NCBI GenBank assembly: GCA_036638575.1 | Contig: JAVWKI010000003.1 | Location: forward strand, 1 to 31,428 | Direction of reading: 5' to 3' | Origin: Anaerovoracaceae bacterium | GTDB lineage: Bacteria > Bacillota > Clostridia > Peptostreptococcales > Anaerovoracaceae | DNA: 31,428 nt | Shown here: positions 293-31,428 of the stretch, piece by piece | Layout: the number at the start of each line of letters is the position of its first letter | Position numbering within the stretch: the first letter of the stretch is position 1 | Program-made: the position numbers and the translations under genes | Notes under the pieces: model-generated | Told to the model about the DNA's origin: nothing | The model's input: the letters and a program-made list of their open reading frames with translations, nothing else | The model's database searches: none

Positions 293-1660
293 TCACGAAT
301 GTCGAACTAGGGATTTTATCCATTTTTTTGAAACAAATCGTTTGGTCAAAATGATACATTTTATTATTTCTTCCGATTTCACCACCAAGACGGCAATATA
401 AATTGGCCAATGGAGAACAAGGGCAGTAAAAAATGCCAAAGGAACGCCGATAATCCAAACCGTTCCCACCTCGGTAAACATCGCATATCGGGTGTCTCCA
501 CCGCACCGAAGTACGCCCACAATATTGATTCCGTTATAAAGGACAAGTCCCATAAATAAACCGTACACACAAAGAATCATAAAGGTATAATATGCACCCT
601 CCGGAGTGAAGTTAAAGAGGCTGATAATCGGTTTGGAAATGCCAATCAATGTCAATCCAAAAATCACACCAATAATCGTTCCTACCTTCAATAGCCGCTT
701 TGCTAGCACGTAGGCTTCCTCCATCTTTCCTTCTCCGATTTTTTGCCCCACCATAATCAATACCGCATCGCCCATACTAAAGGCTGCCATCTGCAAGATA
801 TTTTGAATGGTATTTGCCGCTTGCACCGCTGCACATTCTGTAATGCCCACACGAGCAAAAATTGCCACATAAAACGCAGTCCCAAGCCCCCACATGGTTT
901 CATTAATGGTTGTGGGAATGGAATTTTTCACCACACGAAGCACAAAGGCTTTCGGCCATCCGAAATAATCATGAAGCCTACCGCAAAGAATATTCTTCCG
1001 AATAAATACAATATATATGGTAATCAGCACTTGAAGGAATCGAGAAAGCACAGTGGCAATGGCCGCTCCCTTAATCCCCAGTTCCGGTGCACCAAAGCTT
1101 CCGAAAATCAGCAGATAGTTTAATATGGTATTGGTAATAAAGGCTGCAATACTACTGAATAGGGGAATATGTGTCTGCTGGGTTGCCCTAAGGGCACACT
1201 CAAAGGGAAGAATAATGGCAATGAAAAGAAAACACAACCCTCCCGCACGAACATACTGGGTTCCCAGGGCAATGGTTTCGGGAATATTGGTGAAAATTCT
1301 CAATATCTTCTCTGGGAAAAATGTCGCCCCAAGGAAGAATAGGATGCCGATAGCCATGCAAACCGTCAAGGTAAAGCCAATGGTTTTTCGAATCTGCTTG
1401 GTATTCTTTGCTCCCCAAAACTGTGCCATAAAGGTGGAACATCCACTGGAAAATCCATAGACAATCATCCAGAAGATAAAGTAAATCTGAACCGACACCC
1501 CTACTGCCGCAAGCTGACTCTCTCCTAAGCTTCCGACCATCAAGCTGTCCACCAAATTTAAGGATGAGCCGATTAGACTTTGAATTGCAATCGGCAAAGC
1601 CACTCTCGCCAACCGGCCATAAAAATGTTTATTTTCTCTTTCTAGTGTATCGTAAGTCAT
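293..1660 (-). CDS. MATE family multidrug efflux transporter
   Basis: 455 aa with about 12 hydrophobic segments. MATE-typical motifs: [56 protein letters not shown]. Start overlaps the upstream stop (ATGA). Confidence 0.93.
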
Positions 1661-2112
1661 TCGTTCCTCAACATTACTATCTTCAATCCGGCTTCTTCCA
1701 GCATCTCTACAGAAAGGGGATCCGGATATCCTTCTTTTACAACAATTCTTCTAATTCCTGCATTGATAATCATCTTTGCACAAATAATGCAAGGCTGATG
1801 GGTGATATACATGCTGGCCCCCTCAATGCTCTGCGCCAAGGTTGCCGCCTGAATAATTGCATTTTGCTCTGCGTGCAATGCTCTGCAAAGCTCATGTCGC
1901 TCTCCCGAAGGAATATTCATGGCTTGCCGCAAGCAGCCGCCCTTTTCACTGCAATGGGGAATGCCCTTAGGCGCACCATTGTATCCAGTAGCAATAATAT
2001 GCTTATCCTGGACGATTACTGCGCCCACCTGCCGTCTCAAGCAGGTAGACCGTTCCGCCGTTAATTCTGCCATTTTCATAAAATATTCATCCCAAGTGGG
2101 TCGTGTATCCAT
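1657..2112 (-). CDS. dCMP deaminase / ComEB-like cytidine-deoxycytidylate deaminase
   Basis: [26 protein letters not shown], and zinc motifs HAEQNA and PCIIC. Start set at ATG 2112, which follows the RBS GGAGGAAAGG (ORF track start 2136). Confidence 0.92.
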
Positions 2113-2132
2113 ATCCTTTCCTCCCTGCATAC

Positions 2133-2873
2133 TCAATAGTACACCTCCTGCAAGTAAAGTCCTTGCGGCGGTGCGGTATGCCCCGCTTTTGTTCTATCCT
2201 TACCGGCAAGAATTTTTTTCATCTCTTCTGCCGGGATTTTGCCGCTTCCTACATCCACTAGCGTTCCGGTAATGATTCTTACCATATTATACAAGAATCC
2301 ATCACCTACAATTTCCAAGGTAATCTCTTCTCCCTGTTTTTCTAAGGTTAGGCTGTGCACCGTCCTTACGGTTGTCTCTCGTTCCTCACCTCCGGAAGCT
2401 TCAAAACATTTGAAATCATGGGTACCCACAATCTCTGCTGCGGCAAGCCGCATCAGGTCCAAGTTTAAAGGCTTTTTTACATAGTAATAAAGGTTCCGTC
2501 CAAAAGGACTTTTCTCCTCTGTGTTCATTATTTTGTAGCAATATTTCTTGCCTACCGCATTAAACCTCGCATGAAAACCCGCTTCTTTTTCTTCAACAGC
2601 ACCAATCCGAATTGCTCCGGGTAAGATATTGTTTACCGCAAATTTTATCCGTTCTGTGGGAATACCAAATTCACCGGAAAAAGATGCCCGCTGCCCAAAG
2701 GCATGGACCCCTCCATCCGTTCTACTGGTTCCGTTAATTTTAATGGGCTTACCGCAAATTATCGACAACGCTTTTTCCACTTCTCCTTGGACGGTGGGAA
2801 CATTTGGCTGTCTCTGCCAACCAAAAAAATCGGTTCCATCATATTCTATTGTCAGCAAAATCGTTCGTTCCAT
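2133..2873 (-). CDS. truA: tRNA pseudouridine(38-40) synthase
   Basis: [14 protein letters not shown], catalytic [33 protein letters not shown]. Confidence 0.96.
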
Positions 2874-2925: not shown

Positions 2926-3219
2926 TTATCTAGGCAGCTGAATTTTTTTGTTGTCTACAGACTCACGATAAAGGGTAAATTTGTGACCGATAGCTTGTAC
3001 AAATTCTGCATTTAACTCTTCTGCCAATTCATTTGCAACTTCCTTTGCCTTTAAATAGCAGCCTTCTTGCAGCTTTACCTTCACCAATTCTCTTGACTCA
3101 AAGCCGTTTTCCAATTCTTTGCGAATATTCTCCGTCAAGCCGTTTTTTCCTAGAAATACCGTAGGTTCCATATCATGTGCTAGCTTTTTCAAGTAGCTTC
3201 TTTGCTTTCCTGTTATCAT
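2926..3219 (-). CDS. yhbY: YhbY/CRM-domain RNA-binding ribosome assembly protein
   Basis: 97 aa. MITGKQRSYLKKLAH, GKNGLT, ELVKVK, VQAIGHKFTLYR match the CRM/YhbY pattern. Confidence 0.9.
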   Translation of the reverse strand: MITGKQRSYLKKLAHDMEPTVFLGKNGLTENIRKELENGFESRELVKVKLQEGCYLKAKEVANELAEELNAEFVQAIGHKFTLYRESVDNKKIQLPR

Positions 3220-3266: not shown

Positions 3267-3959
3267 CTATTTTAGCGGAAAGAATAACACGATGCATATT
3301 CCTGCTGCAGCCTCTATGTAGAGGGCTAGCGGATATTGCACTATCTTCTTTTGTTTCTTTTTTAGCAGCCCCATCGCTGCCCCAATTCCTGCCAAAAACA
3401 CCCCAAAAATAAGAACAAAGCCGATTCCTTTTGGTCCGAGCATTAACCCTAACGCTCCGCAAAGCTTAGCACTTCCAAGGAGCAAGCCTTCTTTTTTTCG
3501 GATTAATTTCCCCGCCAAGCCCAGGAGGATCATCCCGCCAAATCCAATCAATGCACCCCATAGTAGCTGCAAATATTGTGAATGGAAGGGGATAAATCCA
3601 AAGGCAGTAATGGCCAAAAATAAAACCAGCTCCTGGGAAATTACCTTGTATTTTTTGGTGGCAATGGCCAGTTCTAAAAGCAACCACAGGGCAAAGGTTG
3701 CCCCTATGGCATACTGCCAGTTTTTCATTCCTAAATAGATGTCGATGACAATAAAAGACGCAACGAAGACATATTTCCAAGGATAGCTTTTAATCCGTTG
3801 ACTGTGGGGAGAAAGAACCGCCTCATCCGGTTCTTTCCCATAATCACAAAGCCACGTTGCAGGGATTCGATTGAATCCATAAACCGCTCCATTGCCTGCA
3901 ATCACGCCCACGCCTATGCTCGCTGCGACAATTATTATACTCCTTAACAGTTGATCCAT
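3267..3959 (-). CDS. Prepilin peptidase (A24/GXGD) homologue, both catalytic Asp apparently substituted
   Basis: Polytopic membrane protein with A24 layout, but ELAIATKKY where homologues have xIxD-x-K/R-Y and LLGSAKL where they have GxGDxKL. C-terminal YPLALYI resembles the PFxPFI-type motif. Start at 3959 (TAATG overlap with the malic enzyme stop). Confidence 0.72.
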   Translation of the reverse strand: MDQLLRSIIIVAASIGVGVIAGNGAVYGFNRIPATWLCDYGKEPDEAVLSPHSQRIKSYPWKYVFVASFIVIDIYLGMKNWQYAIGATFALWLLLELAIATKKYKVISQELVLFLAITAFGFIPFHSQYLQLLWGALIGFGGMILLGLAGKLIRKKEGLLLGSAKLCGALGLMLGPKGIGFVLIFGVFLAGIGAAMGLLKKKQKKIVQYPLALYIEAAAGICIVLFFPLK

Positions 3960-5101
3960 TATTCCTTCCATGCTCCTGCAACCGCATCGGCCACTACATC
4001 AGCAACGCCGGGAGTGAATGCACTTGGAATAATATTTTCTGCTGTTAAATCCTTATCTTCAATTACTTCTGCTAGGGCATAGGCCGCCGCAACTTTCATT
4101 TCTTCGGTGATTCTCTTTGCCCCTGCCCTTAGGGCACCCTTAAATAGTCCCGGGAAAATCAAAACATTGTTGATCTGATTAGGAAAATCCGATCGCCCTG
4201 TTGCCACAACTGCAGCCCCGGCTTCTCTGGCAAGATCCGGCATAATTTCCGGCTCTGGATTGGCCATGGCAAAAATCATGGAATCCTTATCCATCGCACC
4301 AATCATCTCCGCGCTTAGTGCCTTTGGTCCGGATACGCCCACAAACAGATCTCTATCCTTTACTGCCTCTGCCAAATCACAGCCATAGGTACAAGCAATG
4401 CCGTCCTTAGCTGCCAAAAGTTTTTCTGCAAGGGCCTGTGCCGGCTCTTTGCGCTTATCACAAACTGCAATATCACAAACGCCTAAGCTGAACAGCATCT
4501 TGGCGATGGCAGTTCCTGCCGCTCCCGCACCATTTAATACAAGCTTTAATTGATCAATTCGTTTTCCGGTTAATCTGCACGCATTGATTACCGCCGCGGA
4601 AACCACCACTGCCGTTCCATGCTGATCGTCATGAAATACCGGAATATCCACCTCCGCTTGCAATCGCTCTTCGATTTCAAAGCAACGCGGGGCGGAAATG
4701 TCTTCTAAGTTAATTCCCCCTAGCGTTGGTGCAATATTTTTGGCGATCATCACAATATCTTCCACCTCTTGGCTTTGGATACAAATGGGAATCGCATCTA
4801 CTCCTGCAAACTCTTTAAACAACAAGCATTTTCCATCCATAACCGGGATAGAGGCTGCCGCGCCAATATTTCCAAGACCCAGCACCGCAGAGCCATCACT
4901 GATTACCGCTACGGTATTGCTCTTGTTGGTGTATCGATATACCTCTTCCGGGTTTTCGTGTATTTTTCTGCACGGCTCTGCAACACCCGGAGTGTAAGCG
5001 GTAGAAAGATCTTCTTTTGTCTTTACTGCAACCTTGCTAATGGTTGCCATTTTCCCTTTATTTTGTTCGTGCATCTCTAAGGATGCTTTGTAATAATCCA
5101 T
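3959..5101 (-). CDS. NAD(P)-dependent malic enzyme (short, no PTA domain)
   Basis: AYTPGVA, SDGSAVLGLGNIG, GINLEDISAPRCF, FHDDQHGTA, GAGAAG, FAMANP, TGRSDFPNQINNVLIFPG. Confidence 0.94.
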   Translation of the reverse strand: MDYYKASLEMHEQNKGKMATISKVAVKTKEDLSTAYTPGVAEPCRKIHENPEEVYRYTNKSNTVAVISDGSAVLGLGNIGAAASIPVMDGKCLLFKEFAGVDAIPICIQSQEVEDIVMIAKNIAPTLGGINLEDISAPRCFEIEERLQAEVDIPVFHDDQHGTAVVVSAAVINACRLTGKRIDQLKLVLNGAGAAGTAIAKMLFSLGVCDIAVCDKRKEPAQALAEKLLAAKDGIACTYGCDLAEAVKDRDLFVGVSGPKALSAEMIGAMDKDSMIFAMANPEPEIMPDLAREAGAAVVATGRSDFPNQINNVLIFPGLFKGALRAGAKRITEEMKVAAAYALAEVIEDKDLTAENIIPSAFTPGVADVVADAVAGAWKE

Positions 5102-5110
5102 TGTTTTCTC

Positions 5111-6748
5111 CTATTTCTGCACCTTGAAGCTGCTCTTTAGGTCCACAATCCGGTTAAATACTTTTTCTGTTTCTGTCGTTAACTTACTGTCTGCCACATA
5201 ATATCCATGTCTGAAAAACTGGAATTTTTCTCCCGGTTTTGCAGCCTGAATGGATGGCTCTGCCATAGCCTTGTATTCTACCAGTGAATCCGGATTCATT
5301 TCTCCTTCAAGCATTAGGTAGCCATAATCTCTAATCGTAATTTCTTCTGCGGTTTTGGCATCAATCCAGTGAATTGTGCCCTTAACCTTTCTTCCTTCAA
5401 ATCCGTTTCCTGAACGGGTTTGCGGATCGTAGGTACAATGCAGTTCCTTGATGGTTCCATCTTCATTTTTGATCACTTGGTCACAGGTAATGAAGTACGC
5501 CCCTTTGAATCGAACCTCGTTTCCTGGGAAGAGTCTGAAATATTTCTTTATCGGCTCTTCCATGAAGTCTGCTCCATCTACATAAAGTTCCTTGCTAAAC
5601 GGAACCATTCTGTTGCCCATTTCCGGAACATTTCTGTTGTTTTCCATCTCCATTTCTTCGGTTTGATCTTCCGGGTAATTGGTAATCACAACCTTAATTG
5701 GATCAAAAACAACATTTCTGCTCTCTACCTTGTCCTGTAAGTCTTCTCTGACGCAGTGCTCTAAAAGAGAAACCTCTACCACACTGTTGGCTTTGGCCAC
5801 GCCAATTCGCTCACAAAAATCTCTGATGGCTTCTGGCGTATACCCTCTTCTTCTGAGCCCTGCAATGGTTGGCATTCTCGGATCATCCCAACCTTCAACC
5901 TTTCCCTCGTCTACTAGTGCCTTTAAATGTCTTTTGCTCATCACCGTATTGGTAATATTTAGTCTTGCAAATTCGATCTGCTGCGGCTGTGGATTCCACC
6001 AGCCCAGCTCATTTAAGGTCCAGTCGTATAGTGGTCGATGATCTTCAAACTCTAACGTACAAATTGAATGGGTTATGCCCTCGATGGCATCTTCAATGGG
6101 ATGAGCGAAATCATACATTGGATAGATACACCACTGGTTTCCCGTATTGTGATGCTGTACATGAGCAATTCTGTAAATTACAGGATCTCTCATGTTGATA
6201 TTTGCGCTAGCCATATCTATTTTTGCACGCAAAACTTTTTCTCCGTCTGCGTATTTTCCTTCTTTCATCTCTTCGAAAAGTCTTAAGTTTTCTTCTACAC
6301 TTCGTTCTCGATAAGGACTTTCCTTCCCCGGCTCGGTCAATGTTCCTCTATAGCTTCGAATTTCTTCTGCATTGAGATCACAAACAAAGGCCTTACCCTT
6401 TTGAATCAAGGTCACTGCCGCCTCATACATCTTTGGGAAATAGTCCGAAGCCCAAAGCTGTTTATCCCACTGGAAACCAAGCCATGTGATATCTTCTTCA
6501 ATGGAGTCAACATATTCAATGTCTTCCTTCACCGGGTTGGTATCGTCATATCGTAGGTTGCACATTCCGTTATACTTCTGTGCCGTTGTAAAGTTTAAAC
6601 AAATTGACTTTGCATGACCAATATGCAAATATCCATTTGGTTCCGGCGGAAATCTGGTATAAACCTTATCTCCGTATTTCCCCTCTTCAAGGTCCTTATC
6701 AATAATATTGCGTATAAAATTTGATGATTTATTTTCCATCTCTGACAT
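5111..6748 (-). CDS. glnS: Glutamine--tRNA ligase
   Basis: [19 protein letters not shown] (HIGH), [15 protein letters not shown] (MSK-type), [35 protein letters not shown] 7 nt upstream. Confidence 0.97.
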
Positions 6749-29495: not shown

Positions 29496-30365
29496 TTAAT
29501 TTTCTAATTTTATAAAGTTATCCTTCATTAACGGGCCATTGATAAAGGCATCCATGGTTGCATAGCTGCTGGCATTTGCAATGCTGCCCACTCTCTTTGT
29601 TCCATGATTCTTATAGACATAAACATCTTCATGAATGTATATCAGTGCAGCCTCCCATCCACCATGAGGGCTGCTTTCATAGGTCTTTGCACTACCGAAG
29701 AAAAAAACCTCCCGCGATGACAGCTGATACGGTCTCCAATATTGCACTTGTCCCGCGTAGCCGGTCTTGTCCAAAATCCTAGGATCGACCTTCACCAAAT
29801 ACCCGGTTTTTTCATAGGTCAGTCGGATTAAGGTATCCCTACCAGTCCAAGGCTTCATATCCTTTGCAATATCCTTGTAGATTTGCTCATATTCCTCTAG
29901 TTCATTTCTGCCTCCACCAATAATCGGTGCAACAATGGTATCAATTTGTGCCAGCACGGTTCCTTGCTTATTCTTCACTTTTAGCAATACCTGTATTTTG
30001 TTTGGTGCGTCTTGCTTTGTGACCAGTTCAAGGGTTTTTCCATTATAATAAGAAGCTGGATAAGCACGCTCTCCACCTATGGTGAGATAGCCTGATCCAT
30101 CTACCGTAATCACTTGCCGATCGTATGCCAGTCCCTTGCCTTGCTCCACAACCTCCAGCACATCGGCAGTTCCCGTTTTCCCTCGAATGGTTTCTAAGAC
30201 ATTTTTGCCGATCATCTCTGCCTCTGCACGGTTTTCTGTTCGCCCATAACTCTCTGTAATGGGTGAAATTACCGCTATGGCAATGGTCACAAAAATGGCA
30301 CAAACCACTAGGCCCACAATGACCTCCACCAAGGTCATTCCTTTTTTATTGGCCAGCGCGTTCAT
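29496..30365 (-). CDS. Type IV prepilin-like protein with large C-terminal domain
   Basis: Class III signal NKKG|MTLVEVIVGLVVCAIFVTIAIAV (G-1, E+5, hydrophobic helix). 289 aa. RBS GGAGG. Confidence 0.88.
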   Translation of the reverse strand: MNALANKKGMTLVEVIVGLVVCAIFVTIAIAVISPITESYGRTENRAEAEMIGKNVLETIRGKTGTADVLEVVEQGKGLAYDRQVITVDGSGYLTIGGERAYPASYYNGKTLELVTKQDAPNKIQVLLKVKNKQGTVLAQIDTIVAPIIGGGRNELEEYEQIYKDIAKDMKPWTGRDTLIRLTYEKTGYLVKVDPRILDKTGYAGQVQYWRPYQLSSREVFFFGSAKTYESSPHGGWEAALIYIHEDVYVYKNHGTKRVGSIANASSYATMDAFINGPLMKDNFIKLEN

Positions 30366-30738
30366 GGGCTTCTCCTCCCTCTTGGCCTAACCTTCCTCCC
30401 GGGGTAAAATAAGTTAGGGCTTCTGCTTCCTTAATTGAAATCGATTGTTCTATGGTCTTACCGGGCAAACTAATCTTCATCTTCCCTTGGGCCAGCTCAG
30501 TTCCGCCACCTCGCTCAATTATTTTTGCTGCCTCTTCAAGGTTTGCCGAGGCGGTTTGGGCTTTCCTATTCATGTTGGTCGAAGTAAACAGGATCGTCGT
30601 TGCCGCACCCAAAATAATAATCAAGATCACAAAAGCAAGAACCCCTTCAATCAGTAGTTCCCCGGATTTGTTCCTTAAGGCCTTCCCTATTGCTCGCCCA
30701 AGTCGATTGTTTAGTTTTTTGAATCTACTACTTTCCAT
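30346..30738 (-). CDS. Small type IV minor pilin-like protein
   Basis: Basic leader ending NKSG|ELLIEGVLAFVILIIILGAA (E+5 present). Start at 30738 or 30744. Confidence 0.75.
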   Translation of the reverse strand: MESSRFKKLNNRLGRAIGKALRNKSGELLIEGVLAFVILIIILGAATTILFTSTNMNRKAQTASANLEEAAKIIERGGGTELAQGKMKISLPGKTIEQSISIKEAEALTYFTPGGRLGQEGGEAHERAGQ

Positions 30739-31298
30739 GTACAATTACTCCAAATCTCTTTTCCCGCTGTTCGTTCATACCAACCGCTAAATCGATAATT
30801 TACCGTCAAGCTATATACATTTCCCACAGAATCCCCTACCGTAAAGGTAACATCCAGACTTTTGATGGAAACAAAAGCCTTGGCCAATTCTGCACCGATG
30901 GCACCACCCTTATCCACCTGAGCTGAGCTGTCTAGCTTTATGGAAACATCTGTTATGGTGTATCCCGATAGCTGCTCCCCTTCTAGTGCTATTGTTACCG
31001 GAGAAATATCCCAGGAGGACTCCACAAGCTCCGCGGTATTTTTCGCCTTTAGATCCGCGATAATCATCCCCTTCAAATAGTCTCCCAGCTCGCCTTTTTC
31101 CAGAGAATCCGTAATGGTTTGGGTAGTGGATTTTGCAATGAAATAAATCTGTCGCTCTTGGCCTTGCTTATGGGTAGCCGCCAAATTTCCGGACGTAAAA
31201 ACCAGCACGGCTCCACCTATAATTAGTAGAATTACCGCAACAATAATGACCATAATCAGGGTTTCGCCCTTTTGATTGTTGAGCTTGTTCTTCATCAT
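30711..31298 (-). CDS. PilX/GspK-like minor pilin (no Glu at +5)
   Basis: NNQKG|ETLIMVIIVAVILLIIGGAVL followed by RQIYFIAKS (PilX-like). Start at ATG 31298, in an ATGA overlap with the upstream stop. Confidence 0.75.
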   Translation of the reverse strand: MMKNKLNNQKGETLIMVIIVAVILLIIGGAVLVFTSGNLAATHKQGQERQIYFIAKSTTQTITDSLEKGELGDYLKGMIIADLKAKNTAELVESSWDISPVTIALEGEQLSGYTITDVSIKLDSSAQVDKGGAIGAELAKAFVSIKSLDVTFTVGDSVGNVYSLTVNYRFSGWYERTAGKEIWSNCTWKVVDSKN

Positions 31299-31428
31299 TC
31301 CGCTTGCCCCCAAGGTGTTCTATGGAAATCACTTCCAATGGAATAATTTGGCTTATATTCGCCCTGGTTTCCATTGTTTTCTTTTATGGTTGGATAAATA
31401 TAAGCAAAGGGTCCTGTGCCACCATTCT
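31295..31428 (-). CDS. 3' end of an upstream gene in the pilin-like operon (partial, function unknown)
   Basis: Open frame from the window edge (31426): NGGTGPFAYIYPTIKENNGNQGEYKPNYSIGSDFHRTPWGQAE*, ending in a TGA that overlaps the next ATG. Confidence 0.6.
   Translation of the reverse strand, partial: NGGTGPFAYIYPTIKENNGNQGEYKPNYSIGSDFHRTPWGQAE

Follow-up and report, generated by a model that had tools for sequence, protein, structure and literature searches.

Gene content of the locus

The window, i.e. the whole stretch of 31,428 nucleotides analysed here, contains a conserved run of housekeeping genes on one strand in the order glnS-(malic enzyme)-A24L-(yhbY)-truA-dCMP deaminase-MATE. 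We use the label A24L for a "short-N-terminus" type of A24 prepilin peptidase that is specific to this lineage, the Anaerovoracaceae-like family. The gene had initially been annotated as intact and embedded in a housekeeping run from glnS to the MATE transporter gene, and both its open frame and the domains of the neighboring genes (Pfam and NCBIfam) agree with this description:

293-1660, minus strand, MATE transporter
1657-2136, minus strand, dCMP deaminase
2133-2873, minus strand, TruA
2926-3219, minus strand, YhbY
3267..3959, minus strand, A24L (putative A24-like pseudo-peptidase), intact ORF of 230 aa, PF01478 22.6 bits
3959..5101, minus strand, malic enzyme, upstream of A24L, its stop overlapping the A24L start
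5111-6748, minus strand, GlnRS (glnS)

The ATG at 3959-3957 overlaps the TAA stop codon of the malic enzyme gene (TAATG) and is preceded by GGAAGG at a distance of 4 nt. An alternative start, ATG 3971, would add four residues (234 aa) and leaves almost no spacer to the Shine-Dalgarno sequence. Given the overlap and the well-placed GGAAGG as opposed to the scant spacer at 3971, the ATG at 3959 is the likely start, and all A24L residue numbers are counted from it (230-aa numbering). Scanning the glnS-to-MATE run for internal promoters and terminators returned none above chance.

Homology of A24L to prepilin peptidases

A phmmer search against 5.8 billion proteins yielded 238 matches for the A24L protein, the top one with an E of 1.8e-71 and 56% identity. 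Almost all carry PF01478 (Peptidase_A24), more than 100 such proteins falling between E=1.8e-71 and 1e-50, and the named ones are prepilin peptidases or A24 family peptidases of Anaerovoracaceae, Ihubacter and Emergencia. The window protein itself reaches 22.6 bits against PF01478 (residues 95-196 against profile positions 4-101), which is below the cut-off of 26.5; its orthologues score 50-64 bits. No NCBIfam profile matched it. All 30 of its 30 neighbors in the ESM-Atlas belong to PF01478 clusters.

On the structural side, an AF2 model of A24L (pLDDT 86) has as its top VIA-align match FlaK, the preflagellin peptidase of Methanococcus maripaludis (PDB 3S0X, chain 3s0x_B; rmsd 3.4 Å over 136 residues, 86-230), with a Z of 8.4 that lies about 1.5 above the next row, a Z of about 8 being modest for a helical bundle. 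FlaK shares 20% identity with A24L but keeps both catalytic Asp residues. Foldseek of the same model against the PDB gave no significant match, with FlaK in tenth place (E=0.68), and searches of the PDB sequences with A24L (phmmer) and with the family profile (hmmsearch) returned nothing relevant. By sequence similarity the A24L protein is a true A24 homologue and a member of the Peptidase A24 superfamily. The homology on which the initial annotation had been built is thus upheld by the strong similarity to Asp-intact prepilin peptidases and by the ESM-Atlas neighborhood.

The absence of the N-terminal CxxC pairs of PilD had been pointed out for this protein. We likewise found no CxxC pair in it, and PF06750 (A24_N_bact) matches neither A24L nor its orthologues. 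Since the whole subfamily is without a PF06750 match, the missing pairs are a trait of the subfamily and not a sign of degeneration.

Degeneration of three active-site motifs

The register of the catalytic positions was fixed apart from Pfam by an alignment with 28 orthologues and the canonical PilD of the same genome. In motif 1 all other aligned sequences read AIAD.KY.I(V)PDQ and the window protein AIATKKYKVISQE; in motif 2 all others have GGGDIKL and the window protein LLLGSAKL; at the C-terminal motif P.(V/G)PYI of the others corresponds to PLALYI, the canonical PilD having FGPFL there. The three stretches are located as follows:

3630..3674, minus strand, degenerate motif 1, ELAIATKKYKVISQE (family consensus E.AIAD.KY.I.PDQ)
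3462..3488, minus strand, degenerate GxGD motif, GLLLGSAKL (consensus LGGGDIKL)
3315..3338, minus strand, degenerate C-terminal proline motif, QYPLALYI (consensus P.(V/G)PYI)

The first catalytic Asp is replaced by Thr101 (codon ACC, 3657-3659) and the second, within GxGD, by Ser163 (codon 3471-3473). Among 223 near-full-length homologues Asp is found at the first site in 212, at the second in 202 and at both in 201. The replacement of both residues, claimed at the outset for these very codons, is therefore seen in the codons, in the alignment and against the homologue set. Further changes in motif 1 are Ile to Val106, Pro to Ser108, Asp to Gln109 and Gln to Glu110. The GxGD motif has in addition lost a Gly (Leu160), and the proline motif its Pro (Leu213).

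To see where the changes fall, we took the 201 Asp-intact homologues and picked out the 31 alignment columns with a conservation of 85% or more. The window protein departs from 8 of the 14 such columns within the three motif stretches and from 0 of the 17 elsewhere (Fisher p=3.8e-4; the stretches were chosen from known A24 motifs, yet after the sequence had been seen). Asp73 in TM2 was considered as a newly gained acidic residue and rejected, as live homologues also have Asp there.

Both Asp residues are described as essential in PilD and TadV-type enzymes (PMC3244431 and its references 11 and 12). Judged from its sequence, the A24L of the window is not an active GxGD aspartyl protease, its active site being destroyed in three motifs; with this decay and the established enzymology taken together it would be unable to act as one.

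Conservation of A24L in the species, the genus and the family

Thr101 and Ser163 are also present in two other assemblies of the species, which excludes an assembly error. The sole amino-acid difference among the three assemblies is G150E, present in two of them (codon 150, window 3510-3512). Gly150 is conserved in at least 85% of the active homologues, and its replacement hints at some relaxation.

In the two same-genus genomes G001 (99% complete) and G002 (94%) the genes for GlnRS, malic enzyme, A24L, YhbY, TruA, the deaminase and the MATE transporter occur in this order. Their A24L proteins are 54% identical to the window protein (neighboring genes 60-88%) and retain both Asp residues (..GD.KY.IIPDQ and G.GDAKL), which answers the question raised in the initial annotation about syntenic orthologues. 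Phylogenetically these two form the sister group of the window protein (support 88).

In many genera the gene is found in the same place, between glnS and truA. We detected A24L in 267 of the 401 family genomes searched, Anaerovorax odorimutans being among the bearers, and did not find it in about a third. Genomes in which A24L was not detected (e.g. G003, G009, G021, G022, G027) have instead a short TadV-like A24 with an ORF of 150-190 aa, a finding that points to different peptidases working for one Tad system in different members of the family.

A second A24 peptidase and the pilus systems of the genome

The genome to which the window belongs (G000) is a metagenome-assembled genome of 1.87 Mb in 285 contigs. 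Its completeness is 84.6%, so that the gene inventory is incomplete. A profile search revealed one other PF01478 match (62 bits), on contig C30. It is a canonical PilD of 254 aa (A24_N_bact 108.6 bits, Peptidase_A24 60.4 bits) with the cysteine pairs CPRC and CRFC, the motifs IDLD..IPD and GGGDIKL, and both Asp intact; its gene is followed by pilC and then by pilB and pilT. An active-site-intact A24 had been expected elsewhere in this genome, and the PilD beside pilC/pilB/pilT fits that expectation.

An orthologous pil cluster is present in G032, a genome of another genus (PilC 67% identical). A search with PilC as query gave no match in G001, G002 or G028. In G001 and G002, A24L is the sole A24 match, for which reason it is presumably the working prepilin peptidase there. 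All five genomes (G000, G001, G002, G028, G032) have a Tad-like locus, which in G000 appears to be intact:

Contig C125, 327-3951, minus strand, Tad-like locus: tadA (398 aa), tadB, tadC, Flp-like prepilin, TadE-like

The Flp-like prepilin has 57 aa, a cleavage region ..NTKG/MEMVQ and an Flp1_like score of 32 bits, just under the cut-off. No peptidase gene is located on contig C125. Of 22 family genomes searched, 20 yielded a TadA-type ATPase. It is known that a prepilin peptidase can serve more than one system and that its gene can lie away from those of the systems served (PMC6668835).

The window had also been said to encode prepilin-like substrates, and we found three such genes with class III signal peptides:

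29496..31313, minus strand, three prepilin-like genes at the contig end

Their signal peptides read KKG/MTLVE (in the protein with a PilJ_C domain), KSG/ELLIE and QKG/ETLIM. By their sequence they are candidate clients of the A24 enzymes of the genome, and the cluster may extend past the window.

Recurrent loss of the active site

A tree built from 123 representatives groups the window protein with its live relatives in a well-supported clade of 25 rows. This clade contains a subclade of 16 rows (support 94), all of which lack the second Asp and ten of which lack both; all are full-length (216-322 aa). At the level of species genomes, at least six genera contain a dead or degenerate A24L:

Genus g1: dead in the window species only
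Genus g31: dead in G032
Genus g27: degenerate in G028
Genus g72: G077 and G293, Asp replaced by Cys at the first site, insert of about 25 aa in motif 2
Genus g70: dead in G291; second Asp replaced by Glu in G179 and G245; live in G075 and G332
Genus g86: dead in G091, G254 and G299

Since the restoration of several motifs at once is implausible, several independent losses have to be assumed. The insert in genus g72 consists of hydrophilic residues that stand in place of the GxGD region.

A PF01478 census showed a second A24 above the cut-off in 11 of the 11 dead-A24L genomes inspected, G091 being borderline. In G000, G028 and G032 an inspection of the second A24 showed both Asp residues to be intact. 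When A24L is the only A24, both Asp residues are kept (18 of 18 genomes); ten genomes combine a live A24L with a second A24. The association between a second A24 and a dead A24L has a raw Fisher p of 2.3e-4, a value that is phylogenetically uncorrected and comes from a sample partly chosen by trait, the second batch of genomes having been picked for resemblance to dead forms and the independent events being few. An independent-pairs test of the same association showed no significance, the contrasts being too few. The distribution is consistent with catalysis being lost only where another A24 is present.

Decay does occur in some dead copies: that of G254 is interrupted by an in-frame TGA. The same genome (contigs C65, C93) also holds another A24L-like copy, which with 66.9 bits scores as an intact peptidase and could be a paralogue or bin contamination. 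Two long-dead Asp-less A24L proteins, P0147 and P0184, have no Pfam match at all. Metagenome scans with the exact motif-1 DNA and with a degenerate back-translation gave no match.

Evolutionary rates and selection

At 0.46 the terminal branch of the window protein is no longer than the branches leading to the two live sisters, which measure 0.51 and 0.55. Relative-rate tests after Tajima, eight in all against four outgroups, were without exception non-significant, the dead protein being the slower one in some. We further simulated neutral drift on the sister genes with a simple model that ignores indels: when about 55% of the codons have changed (about 0.4 substitutions per site) the frame stays open in about 0.3% of cases, and at half that divergence in 2-3%. 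With site-specific losses, no acceleration of the rate and such rare retention of an open frame, neutral decay of the whole gene is a poor fit. The active site is released from selection; the scaffold is not.

For the window lineage itself dN/dS is not available because dS is saturated against every relative. Between other dead copies, however close to saturation their dS, NG86 estimates could be made: the pair G077-G293 has a pN of 0.26, a pS of 0.64 and an omega of about 0.2, and the pair G179-G245 an omega of about 0.26, compared with 0.07-0.15 for live pairs.

Constraint on the N-terminal module

The N-terminal part of A24L forms a module of two transmembrane segments and a connecting loop:

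3765..3896, minus strand, N-terminal module (residues 22-65): TM1 end GNGAVYGFNRIP, acidic loop WLCDYGKEPDE, QRIKSYPWKY leading into TM2

All its features, GNGAVY.FN.IP, WLCDYG.EP and QR.KS.PWKY, are intact in the window protein. The G, V, N, P, QR, P.K and F of the module are invariant over 15-21 mostly Asp-less relatives. Across 15 Asp-less representatives with a mean identity of about 30% there are 11 invariant columns, and 10 of these 11 lie in the N-terminal ~60 residues. In dead pairs of genus g86 the N-terminal 90 residues are 54-58% identical as opposed to 28-30% for the former catalytic core; in live pairs both parts are about equally conserved. In the dead lineages selection therefore persists and shifts to the TM1-loop-TM2 module.

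Interpretation

We propose that the A24L of the window is a pseudo-peptidase that selection has retained since its catalysis became redundant, and that its job is most likely still in pilin biogenesis. To this reading as a whole we give a probability of roughly 60%. An inactive pseudo-peptidase had already been suggested for the gene; the loss of both Asp residues in register, the degeneration of three motifs and the intact PilD elsewhere in the genome all speak for it. The chaperone or decoy function suggested along with it is a speculative one. The sequence of events might have been as follows. In most relatives A24L keeps both Asp residues and often is the only A24 of the genome, for which reason it is presumed to mature the prepilins, Flp-like ones included, of the nearly universal Tad-type locus. 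In the species studied here a canonical PilD would have arrived, or have been retained, together with a type IVa pilus cluster. Its presence would have made proteolysis by A24L redundant, and redundancy would have allowed the three active-site motifs to decay. The scaffold, and above all the TM1-loop-TM2 module, has according to the statistical comparisons stayed under purifying selection, which would leave a non-catalytic membrane protein. Such a protein might act as a holdase, a hand-over factor or a competitor of PilD that binds class III signal peptides but leaves them uncut; alternatively it might be a structural partner of the Tad platform. From this line of reasoning a role in pilin handling seems most plausible. 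That the dead A24L proteins in general are recurrent, selection-maintained pseudo-prepilin peptidases whose N-terminal module binds signal peptides or the Tad platform, and thereby regulates or chaperones pilin flux, is a broader and clearly more tentative proposal.

The main rival, ahead of any residual enzymatic activity or an artefact, is a dispensable relic early in decay: catalysis was lost once PilD had made it redundant, no function is left, and the frame is open owing to recency or to the cost of disrupting the operon (polarity, toxic fragments). We consider this possible, if somewhat doubtful. It would account for the redundancy with the PilD on C30, for G150E at a conserved Gly in two of the three assemblies, for the further decay in relatives (the TGA in G254 and the poorly conserved core in g86) and for the third or so of the searched family genomes in which A24L was not detected. 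It does not readily explain why the changes are confined to the motif columns, with none at the other conserved columns, nor why the rate has not increased relative to the live sisters. Drift up to the observed change at the motifs would rarely have left an open frame in our simulation, and dead lineages have lasted across speciation with an omega of about 0.2.

The concentration of constraint in dead lineages on the N-terminal ~95 residues could also reflect a second enzymatic activity of this part, e.g. a PilD-like N-methylation of pilins that are cleaved by another peptidase; the methyltransferase function of canonical PilD reportedly resides in its N-terminal cytoplasmic domain. This is improbable, considering that the module has neither a PF06750 match nor zinc-binding CxxC pairs, that its loop comprises only about 30 residues and that the PilD of the genome already has a complete A24_N_bact domain. 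Slightly less probable still is continued proteolysis by way of other acidic residues such as Glu96, Glu110 or the unusual Glu216 near the cytoplasmic face. Glu110 does stand in for the neighboring conserved Asp at position 109 (PDQ to SQE), and Glu216 in the last helix is absent from 29 aligned relatives; but both Asp of the dyad, the GxGD glycine and the C-terminal Pro motif have been lost together, both Asp residues are reportedly required in A24 enzymes, and no GxGD protease is known to us in which the dyad has moved to other residues. A sequencing, assembly or binning artefact, conceivable in a genome fragmented into 285 contigs, can practically be dismissed, as three assemblies agree on Thr and Ser, eight separate substitutions have left the frame intact and the flanks are syntenic with same-genus genomes.

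Comparison with known systems

PilD/XcpA (MEROPS A24A; PF06750 and PF01478) shares with A24L the multi-TM core and the order of the motifs (Asp motif, GxGD, C-terminal Pro motif), and the flanks of the PilD N-domain align with TM1-loop-TM2 of A24L. A24L differs from it in being without the zinc-ribbon/CxxC insert, and in the window copy the catalytic Asp residues and flanking motif residues are replaced. The truncated A24 enzymes TadV/FppA/CpaA are without the methyltransferase domain, as are the Asp-intact A24L orthologues. The latter are the only A24 in genomes where no pilus machinery other than a Tad-like locus was found, and an Asp-intact A24L probably plays the role of TadV. A24L differs in being about 235 aa long, with an extra conserved N-terminal TM and loop, and, in contrast to tadV, its gene lies between glnS and truA outside the tad locus; the window copy moreover is dead.

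Rhomboid pseudo-proteases of the intramembrane fold are well known. In iRhoms and Derlins the catalytic residues of an intramembrane protease fold have been lost and the proteins are kept by selection, presumably for client binding, which these dead rhomboids retain. The parallel to A24L is one of analogy only: iRhoms and Derlins have an unrelated fold, are eukaryotic and have been characterised experimentally, whereas client binding by A24L is what we infer. As MEROPS-style "non-peptidase homologues" exist for many families, the category of a pseudo-peptidase is not new. Searching the literature for a pseudo- or inactive prepilin peptidase (A24/GxGD), we found no relevant description, and a syntenic, recurrently inactivated and selection-maintained A24 orthologue appears to be undescribed.

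Asp-less A24L members score under the Pfam threshold or are not matched. On account of this they are labelled either "prepilin peptidase" by similarity or hypothetical, and both labels mislead inventories of pilus systems. Taken together, A24L offers a natural series, active in the sister genomes, dead in the species studied here, and long dead yet conserved in other genera. This series could reveal the non-catalytic parts of a prepilin peptidase, e.g. those for substrate docking or for contact with the machinery, and it could show how one peptidase displaces another once a genome gains a second pilus system. If the broader, more tentative proposal is true, dead A24L would be a prokaryotic counterpart of the iRhoms and Derlins.
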